Positions 3,905 through 64,000 of a stretch of DNA of 64,000 nucleotides are shown here, piece after piece; position 1 is the stretch's first letter, and the number at the start of each line of letters is the position of its first letter. The position numbers and the translations under genes were made by a program. The notes beneath the pieces were generated by a model, which saw only the letters and a list, made by a program, of their open reading frames with translations, searched no databases and had not been told where the DNA came from. Source of the DNA: Bacillota bacterium (lineage in GTDB: Bacteria > Bacillota > Sulfobacillia > JAJZYS01 > JAJYTV01); the NCBI GenBank assembly GCA_021793645.1, contig JAJYSJ010000011.1:22515-86514 (forward strand). Reading direction: 5' to 3'.

Positions 3905-4716
3905 CAGTGTTGCTCGCCGTGGCTCATCGGCAGCCCATAGCGACCGGCAGTCACGCCTCCATCGACGCCGATGACTTGGCCCGTGATGTAGTTTGCGCCG
4001 CTGCCAAGCAGCATCAGGACGGCTGCCGCTATGTCTTCCGGGACGCCGATGCGGCCCAGCGGCACGCCGCTCGTGAACGCCCGGCGGTAGTCGTCGGTGA
4101 GGCTAGGGTTCTCGATCAGCCCGGGGGCGACACTGTTGACGAGGATGCGGTAGGGTGCCAGCTCCAGCGCCATCGTGCGGGTCAACATCACCACCGCGGC
4201 CTTTGAGGCGCAGTAGTGCGCGGAGCCCACGCGGGCGAATCGGTAGCTCCCGGAAGAAATCGTGACGATCTGCCGTATGTCCTGATCCTTGGCCGCCGCC
4301 GCCGCCATGCGGCGGGCGACTGCCTGGCAGACGAGGAACGTACCCTTCGCGTTGATGTCCATCACGCGGTCCCACGCCTCTTCCGTCATCTCGAGGAAGG
4401 GGTTGTCGGGAAAGATGCCAGCGTTGCTGACGAGGAAGTCGATGCCGCCAAGGTCGTTCTCGGCCCGCTCGACCATCGCCTGAACCTCGGGGCGCCGTCG
4501 CACGTCTGCCGCGTACCCGGATACCTCTCCGAACGGAGCGAGTGCATCGACCGCATGCTGCACTCGCTCCAGGCTAAGGTCGTTGACGGCGATGCGCGCT
4601 CCCCGTTCGAGGAGCGCCCGCGCCACGGCGAATCCTATGCCCTGCCCAGCGCCGGTCACCAGTACGCGTCGACCGTGGACGGGATCGGTTGCAGTCACGT
4701 TCTCCCTACCTCCCAT
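3904..4716 (-). CDS. SDR-family oxidoreductase.
   Basis: VLVTGAGQGIGFAVARAL, NAG and YCASKAA motifs. The stop overlaps the M20 start (ATGA), suggesting translational coupling. Confidence 0.85.
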   Translation of the reverse strand: MGGRENVTATDPVHGRRVLVTGAGQGIGFAVARALLERGARIAVNDLSLERVQHAVDALAPFGEVSGYAADVRRRPEVQAMVERAENDLGGIDFLVSNAGIFPDNPFLEMTEEAWDRVMDINAKGTFLVCQAVARRMAAAAAKDQDIRQIVTISSGSYRFARVGSAHYCASKAAVVMLTRTMALELAPYRILVNSVAPGLIENPSLTDDYRRAFTSGVPLGRIGVPEDIAAAVLMLLGSGANYITGQVIGVDGGVTAGRYGLPMSHGEQH

Positions 4717-4747
4717 GAGACCCAGATGCCTTGAACGGCCGGGAAGG

Positions 4748-46488: not shown

Positions 46489-46491
46489 GGA

Positions 46492-48231: not shown

Positions 48232-48257
48232 CGTCCGCCTCCTCTCGAATATGGGGC

Positions 48258-49403
48258 TCAGAAGTAGGTCGCGTTGAGCGCCTGGCGCGAGTGCAGGTTC
48301 TGCGCGAGGGCGTCCGCGACGCGCTCGCCCATCTCGCGCGTCCCGATCACCTTCTCGCCCTGGCTGCCGTCCGAGATGTCCTTGGTGCGCAGCCCCTGCC
48401 GCAGGACCTCCTTCACGGCCCCCTCGATCGACCGCGCCAAGAGCGGCAGGTCGAGACTGTGCTCGGCGAGCATCGCAAGGGAGAGGATCGCACCCAAGGG
48501 GTTCGCCATGTCCTTGCCTGCGATATCGGGCGCCGAGCCGTGCACCGGTTCGTAGAGACCGGGACCGTCGTCCCCAAGGCTCGCCGACGCCATCACGCCG
48601 AGGCTCCCCACGACGCCGCCCAGTTCGTCGCTGAGGATGTCGCCGAACATGTTCTCCGTGAGCACCACGTCGAACATGTGGGGCTTCAGGACGAGGAGCA
48701 TCGCCATGCTGTCGACGAGCTGGTGCTCGACCGTGACGTCCGGGTACTCCTTCGCGACGTCTTCCACCACCTCACGCCAGAGGCGCGAGGTCTCGAGCAC
48801 GTTGCGCTTGTCGACGGACGTCACCCGTCCTTGGCGCCTCTGCGCCGAGCGGAAGGCGACGTGCGCGACCCGGCGGATCTCCCCTTCCTCGTAGGCCATC
48901 GTGTCGATGGCGCTCCGCGATGGACTCTCCCCGCTGCGGCCACGGGGCTCCCCGAAGTACACGCCGCCCGTGAGCTCGCGCACGAGGAGGACATCGAGGC
49001 CCTGGATCGCTGAAGGCCGCAGCGGCGACTGGCCTTCGAGGCCCGGCAGGAGCGCCGCAGGGCGCAGATTCGCGTAGACGGAGAGCGCGCGGCGCAGGCC
49101 GAGGAGGCCTGCCTCTGGCCGCTCATGGGGTGCCAGGCGGTCCCATTGCGGACCGCCGACGGCACCGAGCAGCACCGCCTTCGCGGCCTGGGCCGCAGAG
49201 AGTGTCTCTTCCGGCAGGGGCTTCCCCGCCTCCTCGATCGCGGCGCCGCCGATCGGCTTCGCCTCCCAGGAGAGCTCGATGCCTTCGCGGTGCAGGTACT
49301 CCCGGGCGGTGCGCATCACGGTCTCGGCTGCCTTGATCACCTCGGGGCCGATCCCGTCCCCAGGCAGGAGGACGAGCTGATGCGTCTCGCTTTGATCCTT
49401 CAC
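48258..49403 (-). CDS. leuB: 3-isopropylmalate dehydrogenase.
   Basis: LLPGDGIGPEV and NMFGDILSDELGGVVGSLGVMASASL motifs. GTG start overlaps the leuD stop (GTGA). Confidence 0.95.
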   Translation of the reverse strand: MKDQSETHQLVLLPGDGIGPEVIKAAETVMRTAREYLHREGIELSWEAKPIGGAAIEEAGKPLPEETLSAAQAAKAVLLGAVGGPQWDRLAPHERPEAGLLGLRRALSVYANLRPAALLPGLEGQSPLRPSAIQGLDVLLVRELTGGVYFGEPRGRSGESPSRSAIDTMAYEEGEIRRVAHVAFRSAQRRQGRVTSVDKRNVLETSRLWREVVEDVAKEYPDVTVEHQLVDSMAMLLVLKPHMFDVVLTENMFGDILSDELGGVVGSLGVMASASLGDDGPGLYEPVHGSAPDIAGKDMANPLGAILSLAMLAEHSLDLPLLARSIEGAVKEVLRQGLRTKDISDGSQGEKVIGTREMGERVADALAQNLHSRQALNATYF

Positions 49404-49897
49404 GGCGCCGCCCCCTCTGCGAGTTCCTTCCTGAGCTTCGCCATGAGGCCACCGGACGCCACGATCTCCTGCACGAATGGGGAGAGCGGGATGATCTCAT
49501 AGCGCTCGCCGCGCGTGCGGTTGAAGATGGCCGCCTGCCCTTCGTCGACCTCGACCTCGTCGCCCATCTGGATCCCCTTCGCCGCCGCAGGCGACTCGTA
49601 GACCCGCAGGCCGATGTTGATTGCGTTGCGGAAGAAGATGCGGGCGAAGGACTCCGCGATCACGCACGGGACGCCTGCCCCCTTGATCGCGATGGGGGCG
49701 TGCTCGCGCGAACTGCCGCAGCCAAAGTTGCGCCCGCCGACGATGACGTCGCCCTGCGACTTCTTCTCCAGAAACTCCGGGTCCAGGTTCTCGAGGCAGT
49801 GCTTTCCGAGCGCCACAGGGTCACCGGTCACGAGGTAGCGGGCGGGGATGATGACGTCCGTGTCGACGTTGTCGCCGTACTTCCAGGCCCTCGCCAT
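49400..49897 (-). CDS. leuD: 3-isopropylmalate dehydratase small subunit.
   Basis: Starts at [25 protein letters not shown] overlaps the leuC stop (ATGA). The ORF-track N-terminal extension is rejected. Confidence 0.9.
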
Positions 49898-51177
49898 CAG
49901 ACCGCCTCCTCGTGCGGGGAGAATTCGCGCGGGTCCGTGATCCGTCCGCGCACGGCGGTCGCCGCGGCGACGGCGGGTCCCGCGAGGAACACCTCGGCCT
50001 CGCGGTCGCCCATGCGGCCGACATAGTTGCGGTTCGACGTGGAAAGGCAGCGCTCTCCCTTCCCCAGCACCCCCATGTGGCCGCCGAGGCACGGCCCGCA
50101 GGTGGAGGTGCTGACAGACGCCCCGGCCTCGACGAAGACCTCGATCAGACCCTCGCGCAGCGCCGCCTTGTAGACGTCCTGCGTGGCCGGGATGACGATG
50201 AGGCGGGTCTCTGGGTGGACCTTCTTGCCGCGCAGGATGGCCGCCGCCGTGCGCAGGTCCGACAGGCGCCCGTTGGTGCACGAGCCGATGAAGACCTGAT
50301 CGATCGTGACGTCCCCGACATCGCTGATGCCCCGCGTGAGGGACGGCAGCGATGGGAACGCAACCTGCGGCTCGAGCTGCGAGACGTCGATCTCGTACTC
50401 CTCGACGTAGGTCGCGCCGGGGTCCGCTTGGTAGACGCGCCAGGGGCGCTGGGCCCTCCCCTCCTCATAGCGCAGGGTGAGGTCGTCGGTGGCGCAGATG
50501 CCAACTTTCCCGCCCGCCTCGATCGTCATGTTGGACATCGTCAGGCGGTCCTCCATCGGGAGGTCCGAGATGACCTCGCCCGTGAACTCCATGGCCCGGT
50601 AGAGGGCGCCGTCGTCGCCGATCAGGCGGATCGTGTGCAGGATGAGGTCTTTGCCTGTGACATAGGCGCGGCGCTTGCCGTAGTAGGTGAAGCGCATCGA
50701 CTCCGGCACCTTGAACCAGGTGCGGCCGGTCGCCATGGCGTAGGCGAGGTCGGTGGAGCCGACGCCGGTCGCGAATGCGCCGAGGCCACCGTAGGTGCAG
50801 GTGTGGGAGTCCGCCCCGATCACGATGTCTCCGGGGACGACGATGCCGCGCTCGGGAAGGAGTGTGTGCTCGATGCCGCCCGTGCCCTCCGGGTAGTAGT
50901 GCTTGATCGCCTGCTCGCGGGCGAAGCGGCGCATGATCTGGGTCTGGTCGGCGGAGTTGATGTCCTTCGCCGGGACGAAGTGGCTCATCACGAGCGCTAC
51001 GCGTTCCGCATCGAAGACCCGGGTCGCACCGGCGGCCTCGAACTCGCGGATGGCGATCGGGGCAGTGATGTCGTTGCCCATCACGAGGTCGACTGGCGTC
51101 TCGACGATCTCTCCGTGATGCACCCGCGCAAGGCTGGAGCGGTCTGCGAGCATCTTCTCCGCAAGGGTCATCGCCAC
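49897..51177 (-). CDS. leuC: 3-isopropylmalate dehydratase large subunit (short, archaeal/LeuC2-type length).
   Basis: Aconitase-family Fe-S Cys motifs (GSCTNGR, TCGPCLG). 426 aa. Confidence 0.95.
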   Translation of the reverse strand: MAMTLAEKMLADRSSLARVHHGEIVETPVDLVMGNDITAPIAIREFEAAGATRVFDAERVALVMSHFVPAKDINSADQTQIMRRFAREQAIKHYYPEGTGGIEHTLLPERGIVVPGDIVIGADSHTCTYGGLGAFATGVGSTDLAYAMATGRTWFKVPESMRFTYYGKRRAYVTGKDLILHTIRLIGDDGALYRAMEFTGEVISDLPMEDRLTMSNMTIEAGGKVGICATDDLTLRYEEGRAQRPWRVYQADPGATYVEEYEIDVSQLEPQVAFPSLPSLTRGISDVGDVTIDQVFIGSCTNGRLSDLRTAAAILRGKKVHPETRLIVIPATQDVYKAALREGLIEVFVEAGASVSTSTCGPCLGGHMGVLGKGERCLSTSNRNYVGRMGDREAEVFLAGPAVAAATAVRGRITDPREFSPHEEAV

Positions 51178-52740
51178 TTAGATCGCCTCCCTTCCGGTGG
51201 GGTGCTGGCGTGCGGCCTGCGCGCGTACGGCGGCTGCCTTGTTGAGGGCGTGGAGGTACGCGAGCGCGCTCGCCTCGAGGATGTCTGTGGAGACGCCGCT
51301 GCCGACGAAGGTCTGCCCCACGTACGCGATGCTGCAGCGCACCTCGCCCTGGGCGTCCGAGCCGCCGCCGACCGACTGGATCGCGTAGTCCTTGAGATCC
51401 GCCTCGAGGCCCGTCGCGCGCTGGAGCGCCCGATAGAGCGCCTCGACCGGCCCCTGGCCGACGGCGGCCTCGCGCGTCACCTTGCCGGATGCCGCGCCGC
51501 TCTGCGTCGAAACGCCCACGGTGGCCGTGGAAGGCGCCCCGCCCGCGCTCGATACGTGGTAGTGGACGAGTTCGTAGGAGTCGTCGAAGCGGTAGATCTC
51601 GTCCTCGACGAGCGACTGGACATCCTGGTCCGTCACCTGCTTCTTCTTGTCGGTGAGGGCCTTGAAGCGGCGGAACAGTTCGTGCTGCTCCGCTTCCGGC
51701 AGCTCGTAGCCGAGTGCCTGGAGCTTCTTCTGGAAGGCGTGTCGGCCGGAGTGCTTGCCCATCACGAGCTGCGTCTCGCCCTGCCCGATGTCCTGGGGGT
51801 TCATGATCTCGTAGGTGGTGCGCTCCTTGATGACGCCGTCCTGGTGGATGCCGGCCTCGTGGGCGAAGGCGTTCGCCCCGACCACGGCCTTGTTGGGCTG
51901 CACCGGCATGCCGGTGAGGCGGCTGACGAGCCGGCTCGTGCGCCCGATCTCCTTGGCATCGATGCCGGTCTCCATCTGGAAGAAGTCCTTGCGGGTGGCG
52001 ATCGCCATCGCGACCTCCTCGAGGGAGGTGTTGCCGGCGCGCTCCCCGATCCCGTTCACCGCCACCTCGCACTGGTCTGCGCCGGCCGCGAGGCCCGCGA
52101 GGGTGTTCGCGACCGCGAGGCCGAGGTCGTCGTGGCAGTGCACCGAGATGTGCACCTTGTCGCCGCCAGGCACCTTTTCGCGCACGCCGCGCACTAGTGC
52201 GGCGAACTCCTCGGGCGTCGTGTAGCCGACTGTGTCCGGGATGTTGATCGTCGTGGCGCCGGCCGCGATCGCTGCGGCGATCGCCCGGAAAACGAACGCC
52301 GGGTCCGAACGCATCGCGTCCTGGCCGGAGAATTCCACGTCGTCGACGTACCTGCGCGCCGCCTCGATCGAGGCGACGCTCATCGCGATCACCTCGTCCT
52401 CGGACTTTCGCAGCATGTACTGGAGGTGTACGGCTGAGAACGAGGTGAAGACGTGGATGCGGGGCTTCGCCGCGGCCTCCAGTGCCTTCGCCGCGGCCTC
52501 GATGTCTGCGGTGTGGGTGCGCGCGAGGGCAGCGATCACAGGCGTGCGCACCTCGCGCGCGATCGCCCGCACGGCCGAGAGGTCGCCTTCGGAGGTGATC
52601 GGGAAGCCCGCCTCGATGATGTCGACGCCGAGGCGCTCGAGCTGCCTCGCGATCTCGATCTTCTCCTGGCCCATCAGGTTGACGCCCGGGGACTGCTCCC
52701 CGTCGCGCAGCGTCGTGTCGAAGATCCGGATGCGGCGCAT
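51178..52740 (-). CDS. leuA: 2-isopropylmalate synthase.
   Basis: RIFDTTLRDGEQSPG N-terminus and HCHDDLGLAVANTLAG. 520 aa. Confidence 0.95.
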   Translation of the reverse strand: MRRIRIFDTTLRDGEQSPGVNLMGQEKIEIARQLERLGVDIIEAGFPITSEGDLSAVRAIAREVRTPVIAALARTHTADIEAAAKALEAAAKPRIHVFTSFSAVHLQYMLRKSEDEVIAMSVASIEAARRYVDDVEFSGQDAMRSDPAFVFRAIAAAIAAGATTINIPDTVGYTTPEEFAALVRGVREKVPGGDKVHISVHCHDDLGLAVANTLAGLAAGADQCEVAVNGIGERAGNTSLEEVAMAIATRKDFFQMETGIDAKEIGRTSRLVSRLTGMPVQPNKAVVGANAFAHEAGIHQDGVIKERTTYEIMNPQDIGQGETQLVMGKHSGRHAFQKKLQALGYELPEAEQHELFRRFKALTDKKKQVTDQDVQSLVEDEIYRFDDSYELVHYHVSSAGGAPSTATVGVSTQSGAASGKVTREAAVGQGPVEALYRALQRATGLEADLKDYAIQSVGGGSDAQGEVRCSIAYVGQTFVGSGVSTDILEASALAYLHALNKAAAVRAQAARQHPTGREAI

Positions 52741-52768
52741 CGCTTGCCCTCCTCTCTCGGTTCGAAAC

Positions 52769-53806
52769 CTAGCGGCTGGCCTTCTCTGCCTTGGGCTCTT
52801 CCATGTCGGGCGGCGTCTTGCTGCCGAGCCACGGCATCATGGCGCGCAGCTCGCGTCCGACGGTCTCCAGGGGATGATGGCGCTCTTCATTCCTGCGCGC
52901 CTGGTAGACGGGCCGGCCAGCCTGGTTCTCGAGGATCCAGTCGCGGGCGAAACTGCCGTCCTGGATCGCGCGCAGGACCCTTTGCATGTTCTCCTTGACG
53001 TGCGCGTCCACGACCTGGGGGCCGCGGGTCATGTCGCCGTACTCGGCGGTGTCCGAGATGGAGTAGCGCATCCAGCTGAGACCGCCCTCGTACATCAGGT
53101 CGACGATCAGCTTCATTTCGTTCATCACTTCGAAGAAGGCGATCTCCGGCTGGTAGCCGGCCTCTGTGAGGGTCTCGAAACCGCTCTTGATCAGCTGCGT
53201 CACACCGCCGCAGAGCACGGCCTGCTCCCCGAAGAGGTCCGACTCGGTCTCCTCCTGGAAGGTCGTCTCGATCACGCCGGCGCCGGTGCAGCCGATGCCC
53301 CAGGCGAAGGCGAGGCCCCTCTGGTACGCGTTGCCGGTCGCGTCCTGGGCGACGGCGAGCAGACCCGGCACGGAGGCTCCCTCGGTGAAGCGGCGGCGGA
53401 ACTGGTGGCCGGGCGCCTTCGGTGCGACCATAAAGACGTCGACGTCCTTCGGCGGCTGCACCTGGCCGTAGTGGATGTTGAAGCCGTGCGAGAAGCTGAT
53501 CGCCATTTGGGGCCGCAGGTTCGGCGCGATCGACTCCTGGAAGACGGCGCGCTGCGTCTCGTCCGGAAGGAGGATGTGTACGACGTCGGCGCGGCGGGTC
53601 GCCTCCGCGACGTCGTACACTTCGAAGCCGTCCGCCTTCGCCTGCTCCGCCGTGCGGCCGGGCCGGATCCCGATGATCACCTTGAAGCCGCGGTCCCTGA
53701 GATTCTGCGCCTGCGCGTGGCCCTGGCTGCCGTAGCCAACCACCGCGATCGTCTGTCCCGCGAGGGCACCCCTGTCTGCGTCGTGGTCGTAGTAGATCTT
53801 CGCCAT
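52769..53806 (-). CDS. ilvC: Ketol-acid reductoisomerase.
   Basis: [15 protein letters not shown] Rossmann motif. 345 aa. Confidence 0.95.
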
Positions 53807-53824
53807 CTGCGCTGCCTCCTTCGA

Positions 53825-54376
53825 TTATCGGGCTTGGATCTGCGCGAGATCGTCCGGTGGCGATCTCCCGTCCTCCCCGTCCTCGCGGAAGACGCCTGGG
53901 CCACGCAGCATCGCGACGGCCCCGGTGCGGGCGACCTCGAGGACGCCGAACTCGTGCATCACCTCGATCAGCGCGTTGACCTTGCCGCTGTCTCCGGTCG
54001 TTTCGAGGACGACGGAGCTGGGACTCACGTCGATCACGGCGGCGCGGAAGGTCTGGGCGATCTGCATCACCTCGGCGCGGTGTCCGGTGTCTGTGCGGAC
54101 CTTGATGAGGGCGAGCTCGCGTTCGACGGAGGTGCCCTCCGCCATGTGGTAGACCCCGACCACCTCGATGAGCTTGCCGAGCTGGCGCTGCATCTGGACG
54201 CGGACCGCGTCCTCCCCCTCCGCCCGCAGCGTGATCCAGGAGGTGCCCGGATCGTCGGTCGGTCCGACGGCGAGGCTTTGGATGTTGTAGCCGCGCCGGC
54301 TGAACAGGCTCGCGACCCGCGCCAGGACGCCGGCCTCGTTGTCGACCAGGATGCCAAGGGTGAACTCCATCGCCAT
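53825..54376 (-). CDS. ilvN: Acetolactate synthase small (regulatory) subunit.
   Basis: ACT-domain sequence MEFTLGILVDNEAGVLARVASLFSRRGYNIQSLAVG. Start at MAMEF (ATG 54374..54376), 6 nt after GGGAGG. Confidence 0.9.
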   Translation of the reverse strand: MAMEFTLGILVDNEAGVLARVASLFSRRGYNIQSLAVGPTDDPGTSWITLRAEGEDAVRVQMQRQLGKLIEVVGVYHMAEGTSVERELALIKVRTDTGHRAEVMQIAQTFRAAVIDVSPSSVVLETTGDSGKVNALIEVMHEFGVLEVARTGAVAMLRGPGVFREDGEDGRSPPDDLAQIQAR

Positions 54377-54401
54377 CGCCTCCCAGCGGGAATTGGGAAA
54401 C

Positions 54402-54443
54402 AAAAAAGACATCGTCCTCGCCCCTCAAGGGCGACACGATGTC
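54402..54443 (-). terminator. Intrinsic terminator of the T-box leader.
   Basis: The minus-strand RNA reads GACAUCGUGUCGCCC-UUGA-GGGGCGAGGACGAUGUC followed by UUUUUUG. Confidence 0.8.
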
Positions 54444-54720
54444 GCGGTACCACCTTGTTCGCCTCCCGGGCCCGCACGCAGCGGTGTCCCAGGAAGCCTC
54501 AATTACGGATAACGGCTTTTGTTCGCCGGCCCGCCTATTTGTCCCGGAAATCACTAACCGGGGTGTTCAGCGGGCTGCTCTGGGAGGAGTGCTGTCTTGC
54601 CCTGCAGGACCGGCTTTCAGCCGTGGCCGGCTCTCTATTGCCCTTGGGCGAAGGCGCGCGTCCCATCATCGCGTCGGGACTTTCAGTTGTCAAAGGTCTC
54701 TGGGCCAATGAAATCGCCCG
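54402..54720 (-). promoter_or_regulatory. T-box riboswitch leader of the ilvN-ilvC-leuACDB-ilvBD operon. The 5' boundary is approximate.
   Basis: T-box consensus AGGGUGGNACCGCG is matched by AAGGUGGUACCGCG (rc of 54444..54457) immediately 5' of the terminator. The sequence can form an alternative antiterminator. The specifier codon was not resolved. Confidence 0.7.
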
Positions 54721-55486
54721 GGGGCGCGCTCCGCGCAAGCAGAGCTTGCGTGGAACTTGCCGCCAGGCGTTTTGTGCCAGCGGTGTACCCGGAAGTCCCG
54801 GGCCTGTACTGCTCGGTCCAGCCCACCCGATGAGGAGTGCGGAACCCTAAGTACACTTCCACCCTCTATGGCCTTGCCACTTCTCGCCTTACGGGAAGTG
54901 GAAGGTTGTTAGGCGAGACTATACAGGAGCGGCGAGCGATCCGTCAACGGGGTCCGTGCAGATCTTAACGCATTCGGTCTGCACGATCTGCCGTCCAAAC
55001 CGTTCACCTTGGTCGGGCGCATGCCGCAAAGGCGTCTCTCGTTCGCTAAACCGATTACAAATTGCCCATCATTGCTTCTATTACCATTCCGTGGTACATT
55101 TGGCAAAACGACAAAGGCAAACCCGGCGAAAGCCGGGGACGCAAAGCTACGGGCCTATGCCCCGCATTGGGGCACGGCCGCCGGGCTGCCGAATGACGTA
55201 ACGGGGGCCCTTCGCTTCGGCGCAGGGCCCTTGTCTATTTGCCGAAATGGGGATTGAGCCGTGCGCAGAGGATCCGAGTTCGTTCACTGCCGCCGTATGC
55301 CCGGATCAGCCATTGCGACCTGCGGCACCGTCGCCGACAGTAGACTCGCAGAGATCAGGGTCGCGATCGCCACCCATGCTTTGCCCGCCAGCGCGTTCAC
55401 CTCGTTCACGAGCGCTAGGGCATAGCGTCTGTCTCAGCAACCATCTTCTTGCGGGATGCCCAATACATGCCCGCTTCCTGGGAGGG

Positions 55487-56044
55487 ATGAGGCCAGTGCG
55501 TAGAAAGACCAGCGTGGCCCGCCTTCCGCCTTCCGACCGTTGGGCGCTCGCTTCGATCTGGCTCGTCTTCGCTGCGACCCTAGTGTTCTCCGCCTGGAGC
55601 TATGCGGTGGATGGGTGGTCTGCGGCGGCGTTCTGGCTGGCCGGGCAGGTGCTGGGATGGGCACTCGAATTCATCACGCTCGCTGCCTTCTTCGCGGCGC
55701 TCCTCCTGATCCTCCACGCTTGGCCTGGCAGAAGGCCTTACTGGCGCAGCGTCCTTGTGACGGCGGTGCTCGGCACGGTCCCGTCGAGTGTCGTAACGGC
55801 CGACTTCGACGCCCACTCCTTCGCAAGCATCGCCTGCTGCACAGCGCCAACCTTCTGGAACTGCCTGATCCTGCACTCCAGGCCGGAACTCGTGGTCTTC
55901 GACCTTCTCACCCTTGCACTTTCTGTCTGGGTCGCCCTGCTCTACTTCCCCGCCGTTCGCGGTTGGCGGTTCGGCATGTACCTGGTGCTGTCAGCGATCG
56001 TGCTACTCGCGCTGCCTGTGTCATTCCCATTGCATACCCCTTGA
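55487..56044 (+). CDS. Small polytopic membrane protein, array copy A (apparently intact).
   Basis: About 4-5 predicted TM helices. Conserved SDRWA...W...YFP.(V/L)RGWR... motifs shared with copies B-D. GGGAGG sits directly before the ATG. A conserved GTG 9 nt downstream (55496) may be the true start. Confidence 0.6.
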   Translation: MRPVRRKTSVARLPPSDRWALASIWLVFAATLVFSAWSYAVDGWSAAAFWLAGQVLGWALEFITLAAFFAALLLILHAWPGRRPYWRSVLVTAVLGTVPSSVVTADFDAHSFASIACCTAPTFWNCLILHSRPELVVFDLLTLALSVWVALLYFPAVRGWRFGMYLVLSAIVLLALPVSFPLHTP

Positions 56045-56229
56045 TACCCTGCCCTGACGCGGCAGCGCCCTGCGATTCTCCCTGCGTCGAGTTTCGTGAG
56101 CCGCGTCCTGCTTCGCCGCTCGCTCAGCGGGAGGTGTCAGGAGGCGCCGAGGTCGTCCAGGATCTCCTAGCGGATGCGCAGGACCTCCTCGATCACGCGC
56201 GCCTCGCTGCCGTAGAAGCGCTACGCCGC

Positions 56230-56724
56230 CACCGTCGGAGCCCGTCCCCTTCACGGTCACTCGGTCGCTCGCCCAGTTGTTCGGCGACCGACAGCCTCTC
56301 GGGCGTCGACACGGTGGAAGCGAGCGTCTACGCTCAGGCCGCCACGAACGGCGAAGCCATCCAGCTGTGGCAGCTCCCTCTCGGACCGGTTCCGTTCACG
56401 GTGACGACCATTGACAACGCGGGCAACATCGGCAACCAGACGGTCACCTTCACCATGACGGCGAGCATCGCGAGCATGGAAGACCTCGTCGGACGGTTCG
56501 TATCCACGGGGCTGATCGCGAACCGGGGCCTGGCGAAGAGCCTGACCGCAAAGCTGCGCGCAGCCGAGGCATCTCAGTCGCGGGGCGACCAGGCGGCAGC
56601 AGCGAACGAACTCGGGGCGTTCGTGAACGAGGTGAACGCGCAGGCGGGCAAGGGCGTCGCACCCGTCGCCGCAGCGGTGCTCCTGCGTGACGCCCAGTAC
56701 ATACTCGCCTCCTGGGAGGGATGA
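56230..56724 (+). pseudogene. Fragmentary ORF: Ig-like surface-protein repeat plus helical C-terminal domain (FIMAH-like, tentative), ending at the cassette junction.
   Basis: SATDSLSGVDTVEASVYAQA...PFTVTTIDNAGNIGNQTVTFT then ...LAKSLTAKLRAAEASQSRGDQAAAANELGAFVNEVNAQAGKGVAPVAAAVLLRDAQYILASWEG*. No start codon and no full-length upstream body. Confidence 0.55.
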
Positions 56725-57270
56725 ACCTCGTGGACGTCACAGCAGACGGCTGCCCCCCGAAGCGATCCGACCGGTGGGCAGTTCGCGTACTTTGGATCGT
56801 CCTGGTCGCCTCGGTAGGGTTCGGCGCATGGAGCTACGTGGAGGGCGGTCTGCCCTATGCCGTTACGTAACGGCGGGACCGAACTGGTCCTCTGGGGCTG
56901 GGAAATCCTCGTGATCGCTGTCATCTTCGCCGCCCTCTCGTTGGGGCTTTCGGCCTGGCCGGGAAAGCGCGCGTTCTGGCTCGGCGTTACGGTGATGACC
57001 GTCCTCACCGACGTCCCTGCAAGCATCAGCACCGCCGTTCACCTGGCCCAGTTCTTCCCGCACCCGGCTCCTGCATCCACCCTCGTGGGCAACTACCTGC
57101 TCGTGCACAACTGGCCGGAACTTACCGCCTACGACCTCTTGGTCTTGGGCGTCACCGCTTGGGTTGGGCTGCTGTATTTCCCTCGCCTGCGGGGCTGGCG
57201 CCTCGCCGTCTTCTGGACAGTGACCGTCGTTTGGTGTACAGCGCTCGGATTCCTCTTTCCCGTGCACTAA
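56721..57270 (+). pseudogene. Small membrane protein, array copy B (frameshifted near 56860-56880).
   Basis: MNLVDVTADGCPPKRSDRWAVRVLWIVLVASVGFGAWSYVEGGLPYAVT* then continues in another frame as ...GTELVLWGWEILVIAVIFAALSLGLSAWPG...LGFLFPVH*. Confidence 0.6.
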
Positions 57271-57313
57271 GGACTCGGTTCACACCGAACCCGTCACTTG
57301 GTTCTCTCCAGGC

Positions 57314-57820
57314 GTGATGGCGCTCATCGTCCTGTCGCTCCCGACGCGGTCACAATGGATCCGCAGAACGCCTTGTCCCCATCCTCAGTTCTGCAGGACG
57401 CGGTTCATCGCAGCGCAGGAGGCGACGGCGCTCTCGATCGCCACGGAGGGCTACCACACCCTCACCTACTGGAGCGAGGACAACGCGGGCAACGTCGAAA
57501 CGCCGCACCGCGTCATCGTGCCGATCGATCTGACGCCGCCGGTCGTACAGGGAACGACCAACGTCGCGCCGAACGCGAAGGGCTGGTTCCGCACGGATGT
57601 GACCGTTCAGTGGAGCGCGTCCGACCCGCCCTTGATCGACGGGCACCCTGGCTCGGGCGGGGCCGAGGTCTCTCCACCGGTGACGGTCACCCAGGAGGGG
57701 AAGGGCATCGCGCCCGCCGCGGCGGTGGGGCTCCTGCGTGACGCCCAATATCTGCTCGCCTCCTGGGAGGAACGAACCTCGTGGACATGGCGCGAGAGAC
57801 AGCCCCCCGAAGCGATCTGA
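57314..57820 (+). pseudogene. Fragmentary ORF: Ig-like repeats (GYHTLTYWSEDNAGNVE...APNAKGWFRTDVTVQWSASDP) plus helical C-terminal domain.
   Basis: No start codon and no N-terminal body. The ORF ends ...LLRDAQYLLASWEE at the conserved junction, where the ATG of the downstream gene has been lost. Confidence 0.55.
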
Positions 57821-58240
57821 CCGGTGGGCGGTCCGAGTGCTTTGGATCGTCCTGCTCGCCACGGCGGGCTTCGTCGCATGGGCTTACGCGGTGGGTGGAC
57901 CGCTATCCGCATTGGTGTTCGCACTGACTGATCTGATCCTGTGGGGCTGGGGCATCGTCAAGGTCGGCATGATCTTCGCCGTCCTCTCGCTGGGGCTTTC
58001 GGCGTGGCCTGGAGCGCGTTCCCTCTGGCTCGGCGCCACGGTGGTATCGGTCCTCGTTTCCGTCCCCGCAAGCATCGTGCAGGCCCCTCAGGTCACCGCC
58101 TACGACCTCTCGGTCTTGGCCGTCCCCACCTAGGTTGCCCTACGCTATTTCCCCAACCTGCGGGGCTGGCGCTTCGCGCCTTCTGGACGGTGACCGTCGC
58201 TTGGTGTCTGGCGATTCCTGGCCTGCTACCCGTGCACTAG
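57781..58240 (+). pseudogene. Small membrane protein, array copy C (lost ATG, internal roughly 80-nt deletion, stop and frameshift).
   Basis: Alignable to copy B at the nucleotide level. Carries TGA in place of the cgatccgaccgg block. The frame breaks at ...LAVPT* before ...AFWTVTVAWCLAIPGLLPVH*. Confidence 0.55.
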
Positions 58241-58399
58241 CGCCTGCGGCTCCAAACCTACATCATCGTGTGATTCTTCACGCTCCTGCCGCTGCACGAA
58301 GCCGCACAGCGAATCCGCAGAACGCCCTGTTCGAACTTCGGTGCTGCACTGCGCGGTCGTTGCCGCGCTTGTGGGAGGCATCAGGTCGGTAGACAAGAC

Positions 58400-58520
58400 A
58401 ACCAGCACGGATCCTCACCGGCCGTCCGACCGTTGGGCACTTGTTGCGCTTTGGCTCGTCTTCGTCGGAGTCTACGAACGAGATCGCGACGGGGGATTTG
58501 AAGGGGGTCATGTACACCGC
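58400..58520 (+). pseudogene. Array copy D, a truncated remnant of the membrane protein gene.
   Basis: Encodes ...PSDRWALVALWLVFVGVYERDRDGG... then degenerates. It is preceded by the conserved spacer block. Confidence 0.4.
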
Positions 58521-58698
58521 GGCGCCTTCCTGAACGCGCTCGGCGGGGTCTCCAGGCAAAGCTCCATCCCCAGAGCGTCTACCTCTGGACGCTGCCGATG
58601 GTTCTCTGCAACGACAACTCGTGGGTCGCAGGTCTTCGTCCGGTCGTCCGGTTGAGCAAGAAGGATGTGCGGGCAGATGGCCTCCTTGGAAACGCCTC

Positions 58699-59613
58699 TC
58701 ACGCGATAAAGACTTGGCTCCGATGCCATTCCAGATGCTCTTGAGAGGGCTGTTCCGTCGCCGAAGACGGCACGACGATCCGGTGGCCGTGCCGCGCATA
58801 GTAGTCCCGGCCGTTGTGATAGTCGTCCTTCAGGCGCGGGCTTACGACGAACCGATAACCTTCGTCCACTGTGACGTAGCCGCGATCGAAGAGGATGTGC
58901 AGGTCCGCACGAAGCAGAAGCCCGTTGGCGACGTCGTGCGGTCCTCCATCCGCGAACGGCTTGATATGCGCCGCCTCGAGCACCGGCAACGTATGCTCTT
59001 TTGTCACGGCACATTGGCGCCCGTAGGCATCGGTGACCGCCACACGGAAGGCCCCCTGTCCCACGCGACGAAAGCCGATGCCCCAGTAGCCCCGCTCTCC
59101 GTACTCGGCCTGCTGCGCGCCAACCGGCACCGGCAAGGCCTCGAGCCTCTGTTCAACCTGCTCCCAGAGGTCTCTGCCAACCGCTTCGGATAATTCGTAG
59201 CCCTTGCCGCGGACGATGTTCGGGCTCCAGTCGGGCGGGGCAGGGATCCAGTCTGGTTCTGCGAAGAAAAAAGGCCTCTCCAGGATGATGCACCCGATCT
59301 CCGGGTCTAGGGAGGCCGTCCCGTGGCGGTAATGCTGGACCCGCGCCTGACACTCCGCACGGGACGCCGCACCGTTCTTGTCCCCGAAGGCTAGCCAAGC
59401 CATCGAGAGCGGCAACACGGAATACTTCGTGAAAAACCCGCCGCCGACGATGAAGTTCCGGGGCGCGTGCAGCTTGAAGAGAAACGGCTCACCGGGCGTG
59501 AGCGCCCGAAACCCGGTGCTCGACGAAGGCGTCCAGAAGTTGACCTCATCGGGCTGACGCTGGCTAAGGAACGTGTACCAATCGTGGTCCGTTATCCCCA
59601 CGAAGGTCTTCAT
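58699..59613 (-). CDS. HNH_2-family endonuclease-like protein.
   Basis: Start MKTFVGITDHDWYTFLS (ATG 59611..59613 after GAGGAG). C-terminal HNH_2 signature LEAAHIKPFADGGPHDVANGLLLRADLHILFDRGYVTV. Confidence 0.7.
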   Translation of the reverse strand: MKTFVGITDHDWYTFLSQRQPDEVNFWTPSSSTGFRALTPGEPFLFKLHAPRNFIVGGGFFTKYSVLPLSMAWLAFGDKNGAASRAECQARVQHYRHGTASLDPEIGCIILERPFFFAEPDWIPAPPDWSPNIVRGKGYELSEAVGRDLWEQVEQRLEALPVPVGAQQAEYGERGYWGIGFRRVGQGAFRVAVTDAYGRQCAVTKEHTLPVLEAAHIKPFADGGPHDVANGLLLRADLHILFDRGYVTVDEGYRFVVSPRLKDDYHNGRDYYARHGHRIVVPSSATEQPSQEHLEWHRSQVFIA

Positions 59614-59777
59614 CCGGCTCCTCACCCTTCCAGTCTTCCGCGACGCTGCAGACTTCCTGCGAACCGCGATGCGTGCGCCGACAGTTGGCATGTCCTATTC
59701 CATGGGCATACTGGAATCCCCTGTGCCAGGATGGACCCTTTTGGCCAGCCGCCGCACGGGCGGTCTCAACGGCGCCG

Positions 59778-61145
59778 TCAGGTGTGGACGTGCGGCGTCC
59801 CGATCTGAGAGAACCACTGCGCCACTGGGTTTACGCCCTGCTGGACGTCGCTCGCGGTGAGGGGCACGGGGATCCTCGGCATGAGCGCAGGGGTCACCTT
59901 GCCATTCAGGGCCTGGACGAACTCCATCGAGACCTGGTAGCCCATGATGCCGTCCGGCGTATCGAAGCCCTGCACGTTGCCCCACCCCCCGCTCGGCCAG
60001 CCGGTCGGCTGACCGACGAGGACTCCGTCGCTCGCCTCGCTGAGGGTTTCCGCGACGTCGACGCCAGAGCTGAAGGTGCTTGCGTTCGTGAGGACGTAGA
60101 CCGGGCCGGCAAAGGTGTCGGCGATCGGCGCCTGCGGACCGAAGTCGCCCGCATACTTCGGACGGATCGGCAGATGGGCGAGCAGCGCATCGGCAACGGC
60201 GGAGTTGCCACCGGGGTTATTCTGCAGGTCGATCACCACGTAATGGACGTGCGCAGCCCGCACCGCCTTGAAGAAGGCGTCGACCGCAGCCTTGTAGGCG
60301 GGCGTGTCGTTGCACTCCGTGAGCCAGAAGACGCCGTAGTCCGGCGTCAAGCGCCACGCGAAGAAGCTGCTTCCTTCCGGCTCCGGGAGGCCCGGCGGCG
60401 CCTCGAAGCGGTCGTCGAATGCCGCCTGCCCCAGGTAGTAGGCCTGGTACGTCTGCAGGTCGACGGGCACGAGCGCCATGGTCAGGCGATAGCGCGCGCC
60501 CGACGGACGCTCCAGCAGGAGCTGCACCTGCCCCTGGTGCACGAAGCCGAGCCAGCGCAGGATGGTGCCGAACGGGAGGTCCTCGCCGACGAGCGTCTTG
60601 ATCCACACAGCGCTGCCGCCGAAGAAGCGCTCGAATCTGCGCACGAGGTGTCCCTCTGGCACACCGCCGACCGCCAGGACGCGGTCACCCGTGTGCACTG
60701 CGGCGGGCGTTCCGCGCTCCCGGTAGACGATGAGGCCGCCCTTCGCCCAGTAGAAGCCCACCGGCAGGAGGTCCGCGTCGTAGTTCGGGCTGTAGTCGGC
60801 CCATAGCGTCGTGTGCGGGTCGTGCAGGTAATTGAGCACGAGGTCCTCGTCCTCGGCCAGCCGCCAGTACGGCAGAGGCTTCCGCACTCGTTTGGCGATG
60901 CTGCGGGCATAGGCCAGGTATTTCGATCGCAGCGCATTGTCGCCGATGAAGGCCGGATGGGTCGTGATGACCCGCCGGGCCGTCGCGATGAGATCCCTCT
61001 TCGACCACGGCACCGGCACCTGTTGGTCTGTATAAGAGACGTGCGGCACGCTCGCGCCCGCGACGACCACGAGCATCAACACGGCGAGCCAGGATCTGCT
61101 GCCCAAGCCGACCCCTCCCGTCGCCGTGCTCTGTCCGGCTGGCAT
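59778..61145 (-). CDS. S41-family peptidase (C-terminal processing protease-like), secreted.
   Basis: ATG at 61143..61145 followed by a signal-peptide-like WLAVLMLVVVAGAS. Core motif VVIDLQNNPGGNS. Confidence 0.75.
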   Translation of the reverse strand: MPAGQSTATGGVGLGSRSWLAVLMLVVVAGASVPHVSYTDQQVPVPWSKRDLIATARRVITTHPAFIGDNALRSKYLAYARSIAKRVRKPLPYWRLAEDEDLVLNYLHDPHTTLWADYSPNYDADLLPVGFYWAKGGLIVYRERGTPAAVHTGDRVLAVGGVPEGHLVRRFERFFGGSAVWIKTLVGEDLPFGTILRWLGFVHQGQVQLLLERPSGARYRLTMALVPVDLQTYQAYYLGQAAFDDRFEAPPGLPEPEGSSFFAWRLTPDYGVFWLTECNDTPAYKAAVDAFFKAVRAAHVHYVVIDLQNNPGGNSAVADALLAHLPIRPKYAGDFGPQAPIADTFAGPVYVLTNASTFSSGVDVAETLSEASDGVLVGQPTGWPSGGWGNVQGFDTPDGIMGYQVSMEFVQALNGKVTPALMPRIPVPLTASDVQQGVNPVAQWFSQIGTPHVHT

Positions 61146-61500
61146 TCTAGCCCAGCGGCAAGCCGTCGACAACGGCCGAGTGGTCGGACTTCCTGAAGTC
61201 TGGGGCGTAAGAACGCTCAAGCTCAGCTCGGACTGAGACCCAGATGCGAGACGCCCGCTCTGCCTCGACGCGACTGAGCGCCCTAGTACCGCGTCGCCGC
61301 GACCAACGGAGCGCCTCACGCTCCTGCGATAACGCCACAGGCAAAACCTCGTTCTCATTTCAGCGTTGCCGTAGCGTCTTGCTGCATCCAAACAATATTC
61401 CGTCAGAAGGATGCATCTCACGAAGTTGTCCCGCCGGCACGACGAAAGCGTGAAGGCAGGCCTGGGGCAGAAGCGAGGGCGCAAGGCAGCAGACCCTCTC

Positions 61501-62937
61501 TCAGGCGTCGATCCCTGCCATGCGCCGCGCGAGCGCCTTCTTGCCCTCGAAGTCGAAGTGTCGTGCGGCCGCCAGCTTCTCGGCCTCGAGCGAACCCTCG
61601 GCGTGCACCGCCAGCACGGCGTGATAGCCGGCGAGATCGGAGACCGCTAGATCCGTGACGAGGTAGAACGCCCGCAGCCTGTCGTCCGCGCTGCCTTGGG
61701 CGCCCCGCAGGTACTTGCGCAGCGCTGGCCCGACGTCCTCGCTCTGCAAATCGTCCCAACTCGGCGCCGTCACGAGCAGACCGCCCGCGACATCCTGCAC
61801 ATCCCGCAGTGCCTCGTGGAAGCCGTGGGCAAAATGGTATTTTGCCGTATTGACGGTCAGGGTATCCGGCACGAACACCCCAGGAGAGTCCGTACGGCCG
61901 GTGAGCGCCGAGGCCTCGAGGAGCTTTCGCACCGTTGCGGCGTACATCGCGAGCTGCGCGAGCTTGTCGCGGACGTGACCCGCCGTCTCGATGCCGTTCA
62001 GTTCCGCTAGGAGACTCGCCGACCCGACGAGGAGATCAAGAAGCGGCAGTTTGTACGCGACGGCCGTGAAGCGGTGAAAGTCTACGAACGAGAGCGCGAG
62101 GGGCCCAGCGAATTCCACCTCCCCCGCAAGGAAGACCTGCTCCCACGGCACAAAGACGTCGTCGAACCAGGTGAACGTCTCGACCATCTTGTGGCTGGCG
62201 CTTAGCGGGTGCTCGATCTCGCTGCGGCGTGATGAGAGGTAGGGGCTCGCGACGAGGCTTAGCCCCTCCACGTCGATCGGGACCCAGAAGCTCAGGGCAT
62301 AGTCCTCCTCGCCCGGCCGCATCGCCCGCGTCGGCACGACGATGAGGGCGTTCGCGTTCATTGAGACCGAGGTGTGGACTTTGGCGCCACGGACGACGAT
62401 GCCGTCTGGGCGCCGCTCGACTATGCGCAGGTACTGGTCGGGGTCTGGCTGGTCCTTCGGCCCGAGGCTGCGGTCACCCTTGGTGTCGGTCTGGGCCACC
62501 GCGAGCGCCCAGTCCTCGTGGCGAGCGCGCTCGAGCAGCGCCCGCACCCGCCCGAGGTACCCGGTACCCTTCGCTCCATCGCAAGCGCTCGCCACGCGCA
62601 GGAGGGCGAAGATGGCGTCCGTACCGATCTCATGGATCAGCGTGACGACGGTGCGCCCTTCGGTCGTCGCCGCCTCGATCGCCCGCATGCGCAAGAGGAG
62701 GTCCTCCGGGCCCTGCGGTACGCGGTAGAATCGGCTGATCGGCTCGCCGCCCTCCTCGGTTGTGAAGAGATCGCGATACCGCGGGTCCTCGGCGAGCTGG
62801 TAGTCGATGGCCGCGTGGTCGATCGCCTTGCGCAGTACCGGGTGCTCCGTGACGTCCGCGACCCAACTCCCGCGGAACATCACCCTACGTCCGTCGCGCA
62901 GGCTTCTCCTGTACTCGTCTGCTGTCCTGAGTCCCAT
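61501..62937 (-). CDS. 4-hydroxyphenylacetate 3-monooxygenase oxygenase component (HpaB) / 4-hydroxybutyryl-CoA dehydratase-family protein.
   Basis: 478 aa. Acyl-CoA-dehydrogenase-like HpaB/AbfD family length and N-terminus (GLRTADEYRRSLRDGRRVMFRG). Confidence 0.7.
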   Translation of the reverse strand: MGLRTADEYRRSLRDGRRVMFRGSWVADVTEHPVLRKAIDHAAIDYQLAEDPRYRDLFTTEEGGEPISRFYRVPQGPEDLLLRMRAIEAATTEGRTVVTLIHEIGTDAIFALLRVASACDGAKGTGYLGRVRALLERARHEDWALAVAQTDTKGDRSLGPKDQPDPDQYLRIVERRPDGIVVRGAKVHTSVSMNANALIVVPTRAMRPGEEDYALSFWVPIDVEGLSLVASPYLSSRRSEIEHPLSASHKMVETFTWFDDVFVPWEQVFLAGEVEFAGPLALSFVDFHRFTAVAYKLPLLDLLVGSASLLAELNGIETAGHVRDKLAQLAMYAATVRKLLEASALTGRTDSPGVFVPDTLTVNTAKYHFAHGFHEALRDVQDVAGGLLVTAPSWDDLQSEDVGPALRKYLRGAQGSADDRLRAFYLVTDLAVSDLAGYHAVLAVHAEGSLEAEKLAAARHFDFEGKKALARRMAGIDA

Positions 62938-62983
62938 GAGATTCCCCTCCTACCCCAAGATGCGCGCAATGATCGCGGTTCCC

Positions 62984-63409
62984 TCAGCGTGCGCCGAAGT
63001 GGTTTTGCGGTTCGCCGTCCGCACGGCGGATGGCAAACGTGCCCCGTGCCTGCCCGACGAGGCGGCCCGCGGCATCCCAGACATCCCCCGACACAAAATG
63101 CAAGCGTTGACCTCTACGCGTCGTCCAGCCTTGCGCGTGCAACGTGCCCGGTATGGACACGGCTTCAAGAAAGTCGATCTGCATGCTTACGGTCGCGACG
63201 CTGCGTACGCCCTCGACCGACCAGGACGCGTAGGCCATCGCGATGTCGAGCAGGGTGGCTATGACGCCACCGTGCAGATAGCAATCCGGATTGGCGTACG
63301 CCTGCTCCAACTCCAAGAGGAAGTGCGATTCGCCTGGCTGTGACTCGAGCGCCTGAATCCCCAGCAGATCCCGGAAGGGATTCGGCAGCGAGATGCTCCC
63401 TTCGGACAA
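62984..63409 (-). CDS. Hotdog-fold thioesterase (PaaI/4HBT family).
   Basis: 141 aa. HGGVIATLLDIAMAY motif. Confidence 0.8.
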   Translation of the reverse strand: MSEGSISLPNPFRDLLGIQALESQPGESHFLLELEQAYANPDCYLHGGVIATLLDIAMAYASWSVEGVRSVATVSMQIDFLEAVSIPGTLHAQGWTTRRGQRLHFVSGDVWDAAGRLVGQARGTFAIRRADGEPQNHFGAR

Positions 63410-63430
63410 CCATGATCCTCCTTCCAGCGG

Positions 63431-64000
63431 TCAGCCCTTGCCGGCCGTACTCCCCTGCGCAAGCCTCCGCAGCTCGTCCTTGCGTACTTTTCCGGTTCCG
63501 GTCTTCGGGAGTTCCTCGAGCAGGTAGATCTTCTTGGGCTGCTTGAAGCGAGCCAGCTTCCCCTGCAAAAAGGCGTGGATCTCCTCCACCTTCAGAGCCG
63601 CCCGAGGAACGACGAAGGCGACGGGGACCTCGTTCCAGCGCGGATCGGGAACACCGACCACCCCGACGTCCAGCACCCCAGGATGCGACAGGATCGCATT
63701 CTCGACCTCGACTGGTGCGATGTTCTCGCCGCCGCTGATGATCAGGTCCTTCTTGCGATCAACCACACGTATCGCGCCCGACCGAGCTACGACGCCGAGG
63801 TCGCCGGTGTGCAGCCATCCGCCAACCATGGCGGCCTCCGTATCCGCCGGACGCCGCCAGTACCCTGCCATGACCGAATTCCCGCGCGCGACGATCTCGC
63901 CAAGCGTCGCACCGTCCCGCGGCACCGGTTGCCCGCTGTTGTCGACCACGCGAAGCTCTGCCGAAGGCACCGGCAGACCCCAATCGACTCCTTGCGGCAC
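63431..64000 (-). CDS. AMP-dependent acyl-CoA synthetase/ligase, C-terminal part. The gene continues beyond the window end.
   Basis: GWLHTGDLG, GENIAPVEVE and PKTGTGKVRK C-terminal AMP-binding motifs. Confidence 0.85.
   Translation of the reverse strand: MPQGVDWGLPVPSAELRVVDNSGQPVPRDGATLGEIVARGNSVMAGYWRRPADTEAAMVGGWLHTGDLGVVARSGAIRVVDRKKDLIISGGENIAPVEVENAILSHPGVLDVGVVGVPDPRWNEVPVAFVVPRAALKVEEIHAFLQGKLARFKQPKKIYLLEELPKTGTGKVRKDELRRLAQGSTAGKG

Follow-up and report, generated by a model that had tools for sequence, protein, structure and literature searches.

Four units of a surface-protein 3' fragment and a membrane gene

We analyzed a 64,000-nt stretch of contig JAJYSJ010000011.1 (Bacillota bacterium assembly GCA_021793645.1), hereafter called the window. 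At 55.3-58.5 kb it carries four homologous units, each consisting of the 3' fragment of a gene encoding immunoglobulin (Ig)-like repeats and a FIMAH domain, a junction that holds a Shine-Dalgarno (SD) sequence together with stop and start codons, and a gene for a small membrane protein. This array had been described in an earlier note made from the sequence alone, and its existence was borne out by repeat families, by a recurring junction string and by tblastn. The fragments proved, as the note had proposed, to be 5'-truncated 3' ends of a larger gene, since they could be mapped to a 914-aa parent protein encoded on a related contig, L094. With residues numbered on that parent, the units are arranged as follows:

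55419-55490 (+), fragment 1: the last 22-23 parent codons (GIASVSATIFLRDAQYMPASWEG) and TGA, parent residues 892-914 (tblastn)
55487-56044 (+), memA: intact open reading frame (ORF) of 185 aa (ATG start) or 182 aa (GTG start at 55496, the likelier of the two)
56269-56724 (+), fragment 2: parent residues 764-914, ending LLRDAQYILASWEG and then TGA (tblastn mapping)
56721-57270 (+), memB: pseudogene, full length except for a single +1 nt insertion that leads to a TAA at 56868-56870
57407-57769 (+), fragment 3: parent residues 621-718 joined to 888-913 (tblastn mapping)
57781-58240 (+), memC: pseudogene with at least five lesions
58341-58465 (+), unit 4: about 15 degenerate tail codons, the degenerate junction GGGAGGCATCAGGTCGGTAGAC and a 28-codon memD stub (..HRPSDRWALVALWLVFV)

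Direct-repeat families recur within the array at intervals of 1234 and 1051 nt, measured start to start. The 25-nt junction string CCTGGGAGGGATGAACCTCGTGGAC, for which zero chance matches are expected, occurs exactly at 56711 and with two mismatches at 57762; its first 14 nt are found again at 55475, and a degenerate form lies near 58370. When every piece of the array was searched against the whole window by tblastn, matches were confined to these four units. A length of 1.0-1.1 kb had been ascribed to each unit, which is correct for the 1.05-kb unit; two others measure ~1.24 kb and 0.6 kb, and unit 4 amounts to a stub.

The claim that every unit encodes both Ig-like and helical modules was likewise right only in part. 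The Ig segment EGYHTLTYWSEDNAGNVE / DVTVQWSASD is present only in unit 3, whose Ig-like modules (parent residues 621-718) share 88% amino-acid identity with L094, and the whole FIMAH domain is present only in unit 2; fragments 1, 3 and 4 retain just its last 15-26 residues. Fragment 2, which comprises one Ig-like module and the complete domain, has an open frame that lacks a start codon and an N-terminal body, and its match to FIMAH (Pfam PF22888, E=2e-15, 57.5 bits against a gathering threshold of 24.8, profile positions 1-81 of 81) settled the previously unverified assignment of the helical end. Scores on the OmpL47-type barrel model (NCBIfam NF047446) were 27.5 and 30.4 bits, under its curated cutoff of 40. 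Unit 3 lacks parent residues 719-887, owing to a deletion between two Q-x-GKGI microhomologies, and both the stop codon and the ATG of its junction are mutated (GGGATGA to GGAACGA).

The states reported earlier for the four membrane genes (A intact, B frameshifted, C degraded, D a stub) agree with our annotation. memA, identical to the protein representative P0001 except for the choice of start, is the only copy in the window that could still be produced. With its frame repaired, memB is 67% identical to the homologue at another locus, L007. memC has lost its ATG and carries a -1 frameshift, a deletion of ~26 codons, a TAG at 58131 and a second frameshift near 58178; its nearest relative is the membrane gene at locus L011 (86% nucleotide identity). 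The junction string had been said to supply GGGAGG, an ATG and a GTG to the following gene. Its conservation was confirmed in all members of the family, the 'solo' copies at L001, L013 and L097 included, but the ATG lies only 1 nt after GGAGG, and the likely start is the GTG, 10 nt after GGAGG, because homologues with a TAG or TAA stop have no ATG in this position yet keep the GTG.

Window positions 45496-64000 are 100% identical to part of contig DAHVQY010000125.1 (GCA_027322755.1, a metagenome-assembled genome (MAG) of Thermaerobacter sp.), and three assemblies include this same ~94.5-kb contig. Because these three assemblies agree and the copies are only 50-85% identical to one another, an assembly artefact is unlikely.

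A c-di-GMP-I-type riboswitch and a relic start codon precede the array

The region immediately upstream of fragment 1 contains the following elements, among them a riboswitch that the earlier note had overlooked:

55072-55100 (+), promoter-like site: TTGCTT, a 17-nt spacer and the -10 hexamer TACATT, preceded at two bases' distance by TG
55107-55194 (+), cyclic di-GMP (c-di-GMP)-I-type riboswitch aptamer; best Rfam model, the GGC variant RF03167
55201-55243 (+), terminator-like expression platform: G+C-rich hairpin CGGGGGCCCUUCGC...GCGCAGGGCCCUUG followed by UCUAUUUGCC
55247-55272 (+), relic parent start: G-rich SD, GTG at 55261 and about four codons
55274-55415 (-), inverted and scrambled FIMAH-coding scraps, reading AAVNELG... 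and ALVNEVNALAGK... on the minus strand

The aptamer, a putative c-di-GMP sensor, scored 79.6 bits on RF03167 (gathering threshold 59, E=2.7e-17) over the full model, positions 1-80, and this covariance-model score above gathering places it among the GEMM-I riboswitches (Rfam clan CL00126). The name GEMM stands for 'genes for the environment, membranes and motility' (PMC7266159). In the minimum-free-energy fold the hairpin at 55201-55243 has a stem of 11 bp or more and is followed by a U-containing tail; a simple terminator scan did not call it. memA lies ~250 nt downstream of this terminator. The promoter-like site, which was found by eye and missed by a consensus scan, falls in a region partly conserved in L094 and, as an extended -10 site, might start transcription near the first base of the riboswitch. 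The FIMAH-coding scraps are linked to unit 2 by inverted repeats, 55381-55415 being 94% complementary to 56617-56651 and 55274-55295 being 91% complementary to 56594-56615.

An intact parent operon points to a probable former expression site

L094 is the JGI 3300005861 contig of the membrane-protein representative P0020. It carries an intact version of the operon, and the same arrangement was found in one ENA and one Logan assembly, which brings the metagenomes that show it to three:

744-831, riboswitch: 77.3 bits against a gathering threshold of 35 on RF01051
904-3648, parent ORF: 914 aa
3645-4190, membrane gene, overlapping the parent ORF by 4 nt

The aptamers of L094 and the window are ~80% identical, and the hairpin and its tail are also conserved; in L094 this expression platform lies between aptamer and gene, directly before the SD and start. 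Overall, L094 positions 731-914 and window positions 55093-55271 are 79.6% identical, an alignment that covers the aptamer, hairpin, SD, start and about four codons. The relic codons read V-R-R-G where L094, which has an ATG start, reads M-R-K-G, and homology to the parent ends after these. The riboswitch directly upstream of the array and the alignment of this 5' region with L094 thus mark this region as a former expression site of the operon, and the end of the alignment at about codon 4 indicates that a deletion/inversion removed codons 5-891. We therefore consider that a lineage-specific two-gene operon was probably once expressed from this region, which is now largely dead and also holds partial 3' copies of that operon.

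The 914-aa parent begins with a hydrophobic, signal-peptide-like N-terminus (MRKGLWTVTATLVSVSLLLPAAPRIALA; judged by eye), followed by a 500-aa head without a known Pfam domain, by Ig-like repeats (Big_13, 47.7 bits; other Ig-like families weak) and by a C-terminal FIMAH domain (45.1 bits) ending LLRDAQYVLTSWEG. The earlier note had called for a search for a full-length gene followed by a membrane-protein homologue, and had counted the absence of such a locus against its reading; L094 provides exactly this pair. No further cassettes follow the L094 membrane gene. Beyond it, at 4245-4784 (+), lies a gene for an unrelated 179-aa protein with two likely transmembrane (TM) helices and a charged helical tail, which had no Pfam match.

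The parent was located via the contig look-up of a membrane-protein representative and not via protein search. Searches of 5.8 billion proteins with fragment 2 and a 387-aa composite as queries returned no full-length parent above 45% identity and also missed the L094 protein, which is 73% identical to the 411-codon fragment of locus L009; the 387-aa query itself starts with the first 138 residues of that L009 fragment. The absence of a full-length homologue from this word-indexed search is thus no proof that none exists.

Copies diverge most in the membrane gene and appear to have recombined

We compared the copies at the protein and codon levels. Amino-acid identity between copies was 62-78% for FIMAH tails and 33-80% for membrane genes, and the ratio of nonsynonymous to synonymous divergence (dN/dS) was 0.22-0.48 for FIMAH-tail fragments and 0.19-0.63 for membrane genes. 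Synonymous divergence (dS) of the tails was 0.3-0.75; between A-type and B-type copies it was 0.45-0.75 in the tails and ~1.5-1.7 in the membrane genes, that is, two- to three-fold lower in the tails, and the drop in similarity falls at the gene junction, after the stop codon. Because the copies diverged under purifying selection and memB has a single lesion, memB must have died recently. Decay grows from A to D (intact, one lesion, at least five lesions, stub), a trend among four copies which hints that modules are older the greater their distance from the expression site.

Furthermore, relationships between the window and L011 are mosaic: an inverted piece at L011 matches the Ig piece at 57599-57700 with 92% identity, the adjoining tail and membrane gene are 86% identical, and other parts are 72-78% identical. 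A breakpoint at the QEGKGI site is common to the deletion in unit 3, the inverted scraps upstream of fragment 1 and the inversion at L011. From the mosaic identity, the common breakpoints and the contrast in dS, we infer recombination and gene conversion among cassettes, both within and between loci.

A layout of this kind invites comparison with the orphan C-terminal (CT)/immunity arrays of CdiA-CT/CdiI and Rhs-CT/RhsI systems, in which a main gene is followed by tandem 5'-truncated fragments and partner genes. The resemblance, pointed out in the earlier note, is a true one: units 2-4 lie downstream of the relic start and map to parent residues 621 and beyond, conserved upstream coding sequence is kept, extra copies sit in variable islands, and recombination is the likely generator. 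In every case a coupled variable gene, the putative partner, is present downstream. If the locus were a polymorphic toxin/immunity system, the fragments would correspond to orphan toxin tips, with the membrane proteins conferring immunity, and such a system would account for the stacking of truncated 3' fragments and a small variable gene downstream of the main-gene site, for paralogues strongly diverged within one genome, and for dispersed copies in defence-rich islands. However, a Pfam scan of the 914-aa parent revealed no toxin, TPS/FHA, RHS/YD, LXG or PT-type domain, and unlike CdiA and Rhs proteins it has no delivery region, its only domains being Big_13, FIMAH and weak Ig-like matches. 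Its C-terminus is not polymorphic either: FIMAH is conserved, is common to ordinary secreted proteins of 600-2400 aa (Paenibacillus, Bacillus and others), and the break in similarity comes after the stop codon and not within the ORF, which leaves the downstream membrane gene as the variable element. In contrast to the known systems, moreover, the main gene has a c-di-GMP riboswitch in front of it, and the intact relative in L094 has no orphans. A toxin/immunity system is hardly credible on these grounds, and the earlier suggestion of a hypervariable tip fails as well, the FIMAH tail being the conserved part.

Partial cassettes are dispersed over several loci

An Ig/FIMAH tail precedes every member of the membrane-protein family that has readable upstream DNA. 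Copies outside the window and L094 are arranged as follows:

L006: open FIMAH tail, 85 codons to the contig end, before the membrane gene
L007: open FIMAH tail, at least 63 codons, before the membrane gene
L012: open FIMAH tail, 162 codons, before the membrane gene
L009: 411-codon fragment with one in-frame stop, then an intact 179-aa membrane gene
L011: inverted Ig piece, 173-codon fragment and intact 181-aa membrane gene, with a second membrane gene 9.5 kb upstream
L001, L013 and L097: 'solo' copies that keep at least the junction

At least eight cassettes at four or more loci (window, L009, L011, P0009) belong to the Thermaerobacter MAG or its M0Z66_ assembly. All cassettes at every locus map to parent residues 504 and beyond and lack the head domain, and we thus regard them as partial 3' copies rather than separately decayed whole operons. 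Neither an Rfam scan of the other cassette loci nor a core-motif scan of all loci detected a riboswitch there, and in the MAG, which is incomplete, no 5' end or riboswitch came to light besides those of the deleted gene in the window. The dispersed copies sit among BREX, Dnd, restriction, toxin-antitoxin and HEPN genes and transposases.

One expression site with many partial copies is the arrangement of silent-cassette surface variation, as in Neisseria pilE/pilS and Borrelia vlsE. By analogy, promoterless Ig/FIMAH and membrane-gene cassettes would recombine into a single riboswitch-controlled site and thereby switch the distal half of the surface protein along with its partner; in this MAG or strain the expression gene would happen to have been lost. 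Like those systems, the copies described here are promoterless and 5'-truncated, have open frames and show mosaic relationships. Frames of 120-410 codons have been kept open without a start codon at dN/dS of 0.22-0.48, one riboswitch and 5' end per genome stands against at least eight 3' cassettes, breakpoints are common to several loci, and the truncation points differ within the conserved repeat region, all of which would be expected of a silent repertoire. Unlike pilE and vlsE, however, the expression gene has been destroyed, and of the four local cassettes only one is still alive; L009 has an in-frame stop, no recombinase or invertase gene adjoins the array, and no second strain with a switched arrangement was found. 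The cassettes also hold a complete second gene and offer little variation to swap, as the tails differ little and the membrane gene is almost the sole variable part. An intact expression locus beside silent copies in the same genome was not encountered in this incomplete MAG. Silent-cassette variation is thus an unlikely explanation.

The membrane proteins form a small family

As the earlier note had stated, the product of the second gene is a paralogous polytopic membrane protein of no recognised family. Hydropathy and the positive-inside rule predict five TM helices in memA with the N-terminus inside. The motifs AWPG(R/K)R and YFPxxRGWR are conserved and lie in predicted cytoplasmic loops, whereas the most variable part of the protein is a predicted outer loop (residues 104-132). 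Since no polar residue is invariant, an enzymatic function is unlikely. The family comprised four clusters in the 5.8-billion-protein search and eight 50%-identity representatives in a profile search of 1.84 billion proteins; genome contigs scanned with the membrane-protein profile gave no match, nor did phage and plasmid sequences searched by tblastn. The five-TM family is tiny, shows no fold that could be recognised and evolves under purifying selection. A phage tail-fibre and exclusion-gene pair had also been considered and was dropped, as there was no PHROG, phage or plasmid match and the matches of P0009 were limited to one unannotated 'Bacteriophage sp.' contig and large Actinobacteria and Paenibacillus replicons.

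The membrane genes might instead be stand-alone genes with a role in immunity, exclusion or another envelope function, spread as partial copies, which would leave the upstream fragments as inert fossils, preserved solely for the SD and promoter-proximal sequence. This would explain why intact, selected membrane genes follow untranslatable fragments at L009, L011, L012 and L001 and why 'solo' copies keep just the junction; conserved motifs predicted to be cytoplasmic combined with a variable outer loop, and neighbourhoods resembling defence islands, are also in keeping with it. Against it stand the lack of any PADLOC, PHROG, phage or plasmid match, the fact that the B, C, D and L097 copies are themselves pseudogenes, the tiny size of the family, and the position of the gene in a two-gene operon at the single intact locus. 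We hold stand-alone genes to be very unlikely. A more specific idea is that the five-TM proteins are new lineage-restricted polymorphic envelope partners, exchanged together with the Ig/FIMAH tail of a c-di-GMP-controlled surface protein as recombining 3' cassettes, with the window as a burnt-out expression site. The whole would amount to an orphan-cassette or silent-cassette system centred on a non-toxin adhesin and a membrane protein that serves as its dock or as an immunity-like partner; this we put forward as a doubtful possibility only.

A model for the origin of the locus

In the ancestral operon, a c-di-GMP-I riboswitch with a terminator-type platform would control transcription of two genes. 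The first would encode a surface protein of ~914 aa with a signal-peptide-like N-terminus, a 500-aa head, Ig-like repeats and a FIMAH end, and the second a five-TM protein of ~180 aa, its SD lying inside the last codons of gene 1 and its start at most 10 nt from the stop codon of that gene. In a living operon the c-di-GMP level would set read-through of the terminator, and the adhesin-like protein and its membrane partner would be made together. Deletion/inversion would then have left the riboswitch, the terminator and a short junk leader ahead of memA alone. The partial copies would have arisen by recombination in the conserved Ig/FIMAH coding DNA and by exchange between loci, either as partial duplications or as module replacements in which older 3' ends were pushed downstream.

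Several points weigh against a former two-gene operon of this kind. Intact, selected-looking membrane genes behind truncated fragments elsewhere would fit stand-alone genes better than a partner, and no membrane partner of this sort accompanies the FIMAH-terminated proteins of other lineages. The role most likely for a partner, docking or handling the FIMAH end at the membrane, would be pure supposition, and c-di-GMP-dependent memA, the sole possible present output of the window, is a prediction. memA had no match in Pfam, NCBIfam, PADLOC or PHROG, and its AlphaFold2 model (11 sequences, pLDDT 79.9; an earlier six-sequence model with a pLDDT of 58 was too poor) had no specific match among PDB structures. 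A literature search on c-di-GMP-I-GGC gave nothing usable on the ligand of this variant. Finally, the data consist of MAG and metagenome contigs, and in the incomplete Thermaerobacter MAG an intact copy may lie elsewhere in the genome.

Relation to riboswitch-controlled adhesins and to other FIMAH proteins

Surface adhesins under c-di-GMP riboswitches are known in Firmicutes, examples being CD2831 and CD3246 of Clostridioides difficile and the collagen-adhesin leaders of the Bacillus cereus group. As in these, a GEMM-I aptamer and terminator occupy the 5' untranslated region of a gene for a large Ig-repeat surface protein that starts with a signal-peptide-like N-terminus; unlike them, the system described here has a FIMAH end in place of a sortase signal, is translationally coupled to a novel five-TM gene, and has lost the adhesin gene in the window.

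FIMAH proteins of Paenibacillaceae and Bacillaceae (PF22888) have the same order of modules, Ig-like domains followed by a FIMAH domain that ends soon after LLRDAQYLL, at 35-46% identity. Unlike the genes in the window, theirs are intact (600-2400 aa; Paenibacillus, Bacillus, Cohnella) and have neither a coupled membrane gene nor cassette arrays. When the Ig/FIMAH profile was run against genome contigs, all homologues (at most 46% identity) came from other lineages and were ordinary long genes. No riboswitch was detected by Rfam at 12 distant FIMAH-gene loci, a PDB sequence search with the same profile matched only the Ig-domain adhesin fragment 2yn3 (E=0.0016), and a literature search on FIMAH returned nothing usable. 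At three Bacillus/Neobacillus loci (L074, L076 and L089), FIMAH-tail matches lie in open frames of 13-41 codons (..ILLRDAQYVLTQK*), and short FIMAH-only ORFs (P0013, P0017, P0018) come from sources that include a Bacillus sp. F19 plasmid. It may thus be common, outside Thermaerobacter as well, for FIMAH genes to leave truncated 3' fragments.

The c-di-GMP riboswitch, Ig/FIMAH surface protein and coupled five-TM protein together represent a type of operon not described before, present in Thermaerobacter-like bacteria, and the window offers a clear example of locus decay with scattering of partial copies. It is also a cautionary case, as a toxin-like gene layout need not mean a toxin system. If exchange as cassettes were true, the orphan-module architecture would extend beyond toxin/immunity to a second-messenger-controlled surface protein with a membrane partner, and would open a first way into what the FIMAH domain, widespread yet uncharacterised, does.

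Spacers and neighbouring genes

Between and beyond the units lie three further features:

56045-56268, spacer between units 1 and 2: unrelated sequence without a blastn match in other cassette loci
57271-57406, spacer after memB: a stretch of ~48 nt (including ATCCGCAGAACGCC) in common with the spacer after memC (repeat family D15 and local alignment; weak)
58487-58613 (+), AMP-binding (acyl-CoA ligase-type) gene fragment, adjoining the memD stub at the distal end of the scrambled region

An integron-like cassette arrangement was considered in comparing the spacers, which gave the weak stretch of similarity after memB and memC. In the first spacer, at ~56232-56262, the stretch that encodes PVPFTVT occurs again as a very small duplicate (a weak tblastn match). 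On its minus strand, 56130-56210 reads ..RFYGSEARVIEEVLRIR*EILDDLGAS..., which resembles a scrap of another gene and was unmatched in the fetched loci. The AMP-binding fragment matches the corresponding gene of L097 with 81% identity across 132 nt, and a frameshifted A-type membrane gene lies in the neighbourhood of that L097 gene. An HNH_2 endonuclease gene (58699-59691, minus strand; PADLOC HNH / type II restriction-enzyme models, E=1.5e-18) converges on the array, and the L009 cassette likewise has an HNH_2 gene nearby, at a distance of 5 kb; the two HNH_2 regions have no DNA similarity.

On the other side of the array, the leader of a divergent ilvH-ilvC-leuA... operon (54424-54947, minus strand) has three elements: a promoter-like TTGACG-18-TATAGT at 54947-54918, a ykkC/Guanidine-I-like aptamer at 54861-54759 (53.8 bits, under the gathering threshold of 63) and a T-box at 54678-54424 (57 bits, under the gathering threshold of 93). 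A tandem of ppGpp riboswitch and T-box(Leu) that acts as an 'AND gate' has been described upstream of branched-chain amino-acid genes (PMC9481103), and the predicted combination in the ilvH-ilvC-leuA leader fits this arrangement.

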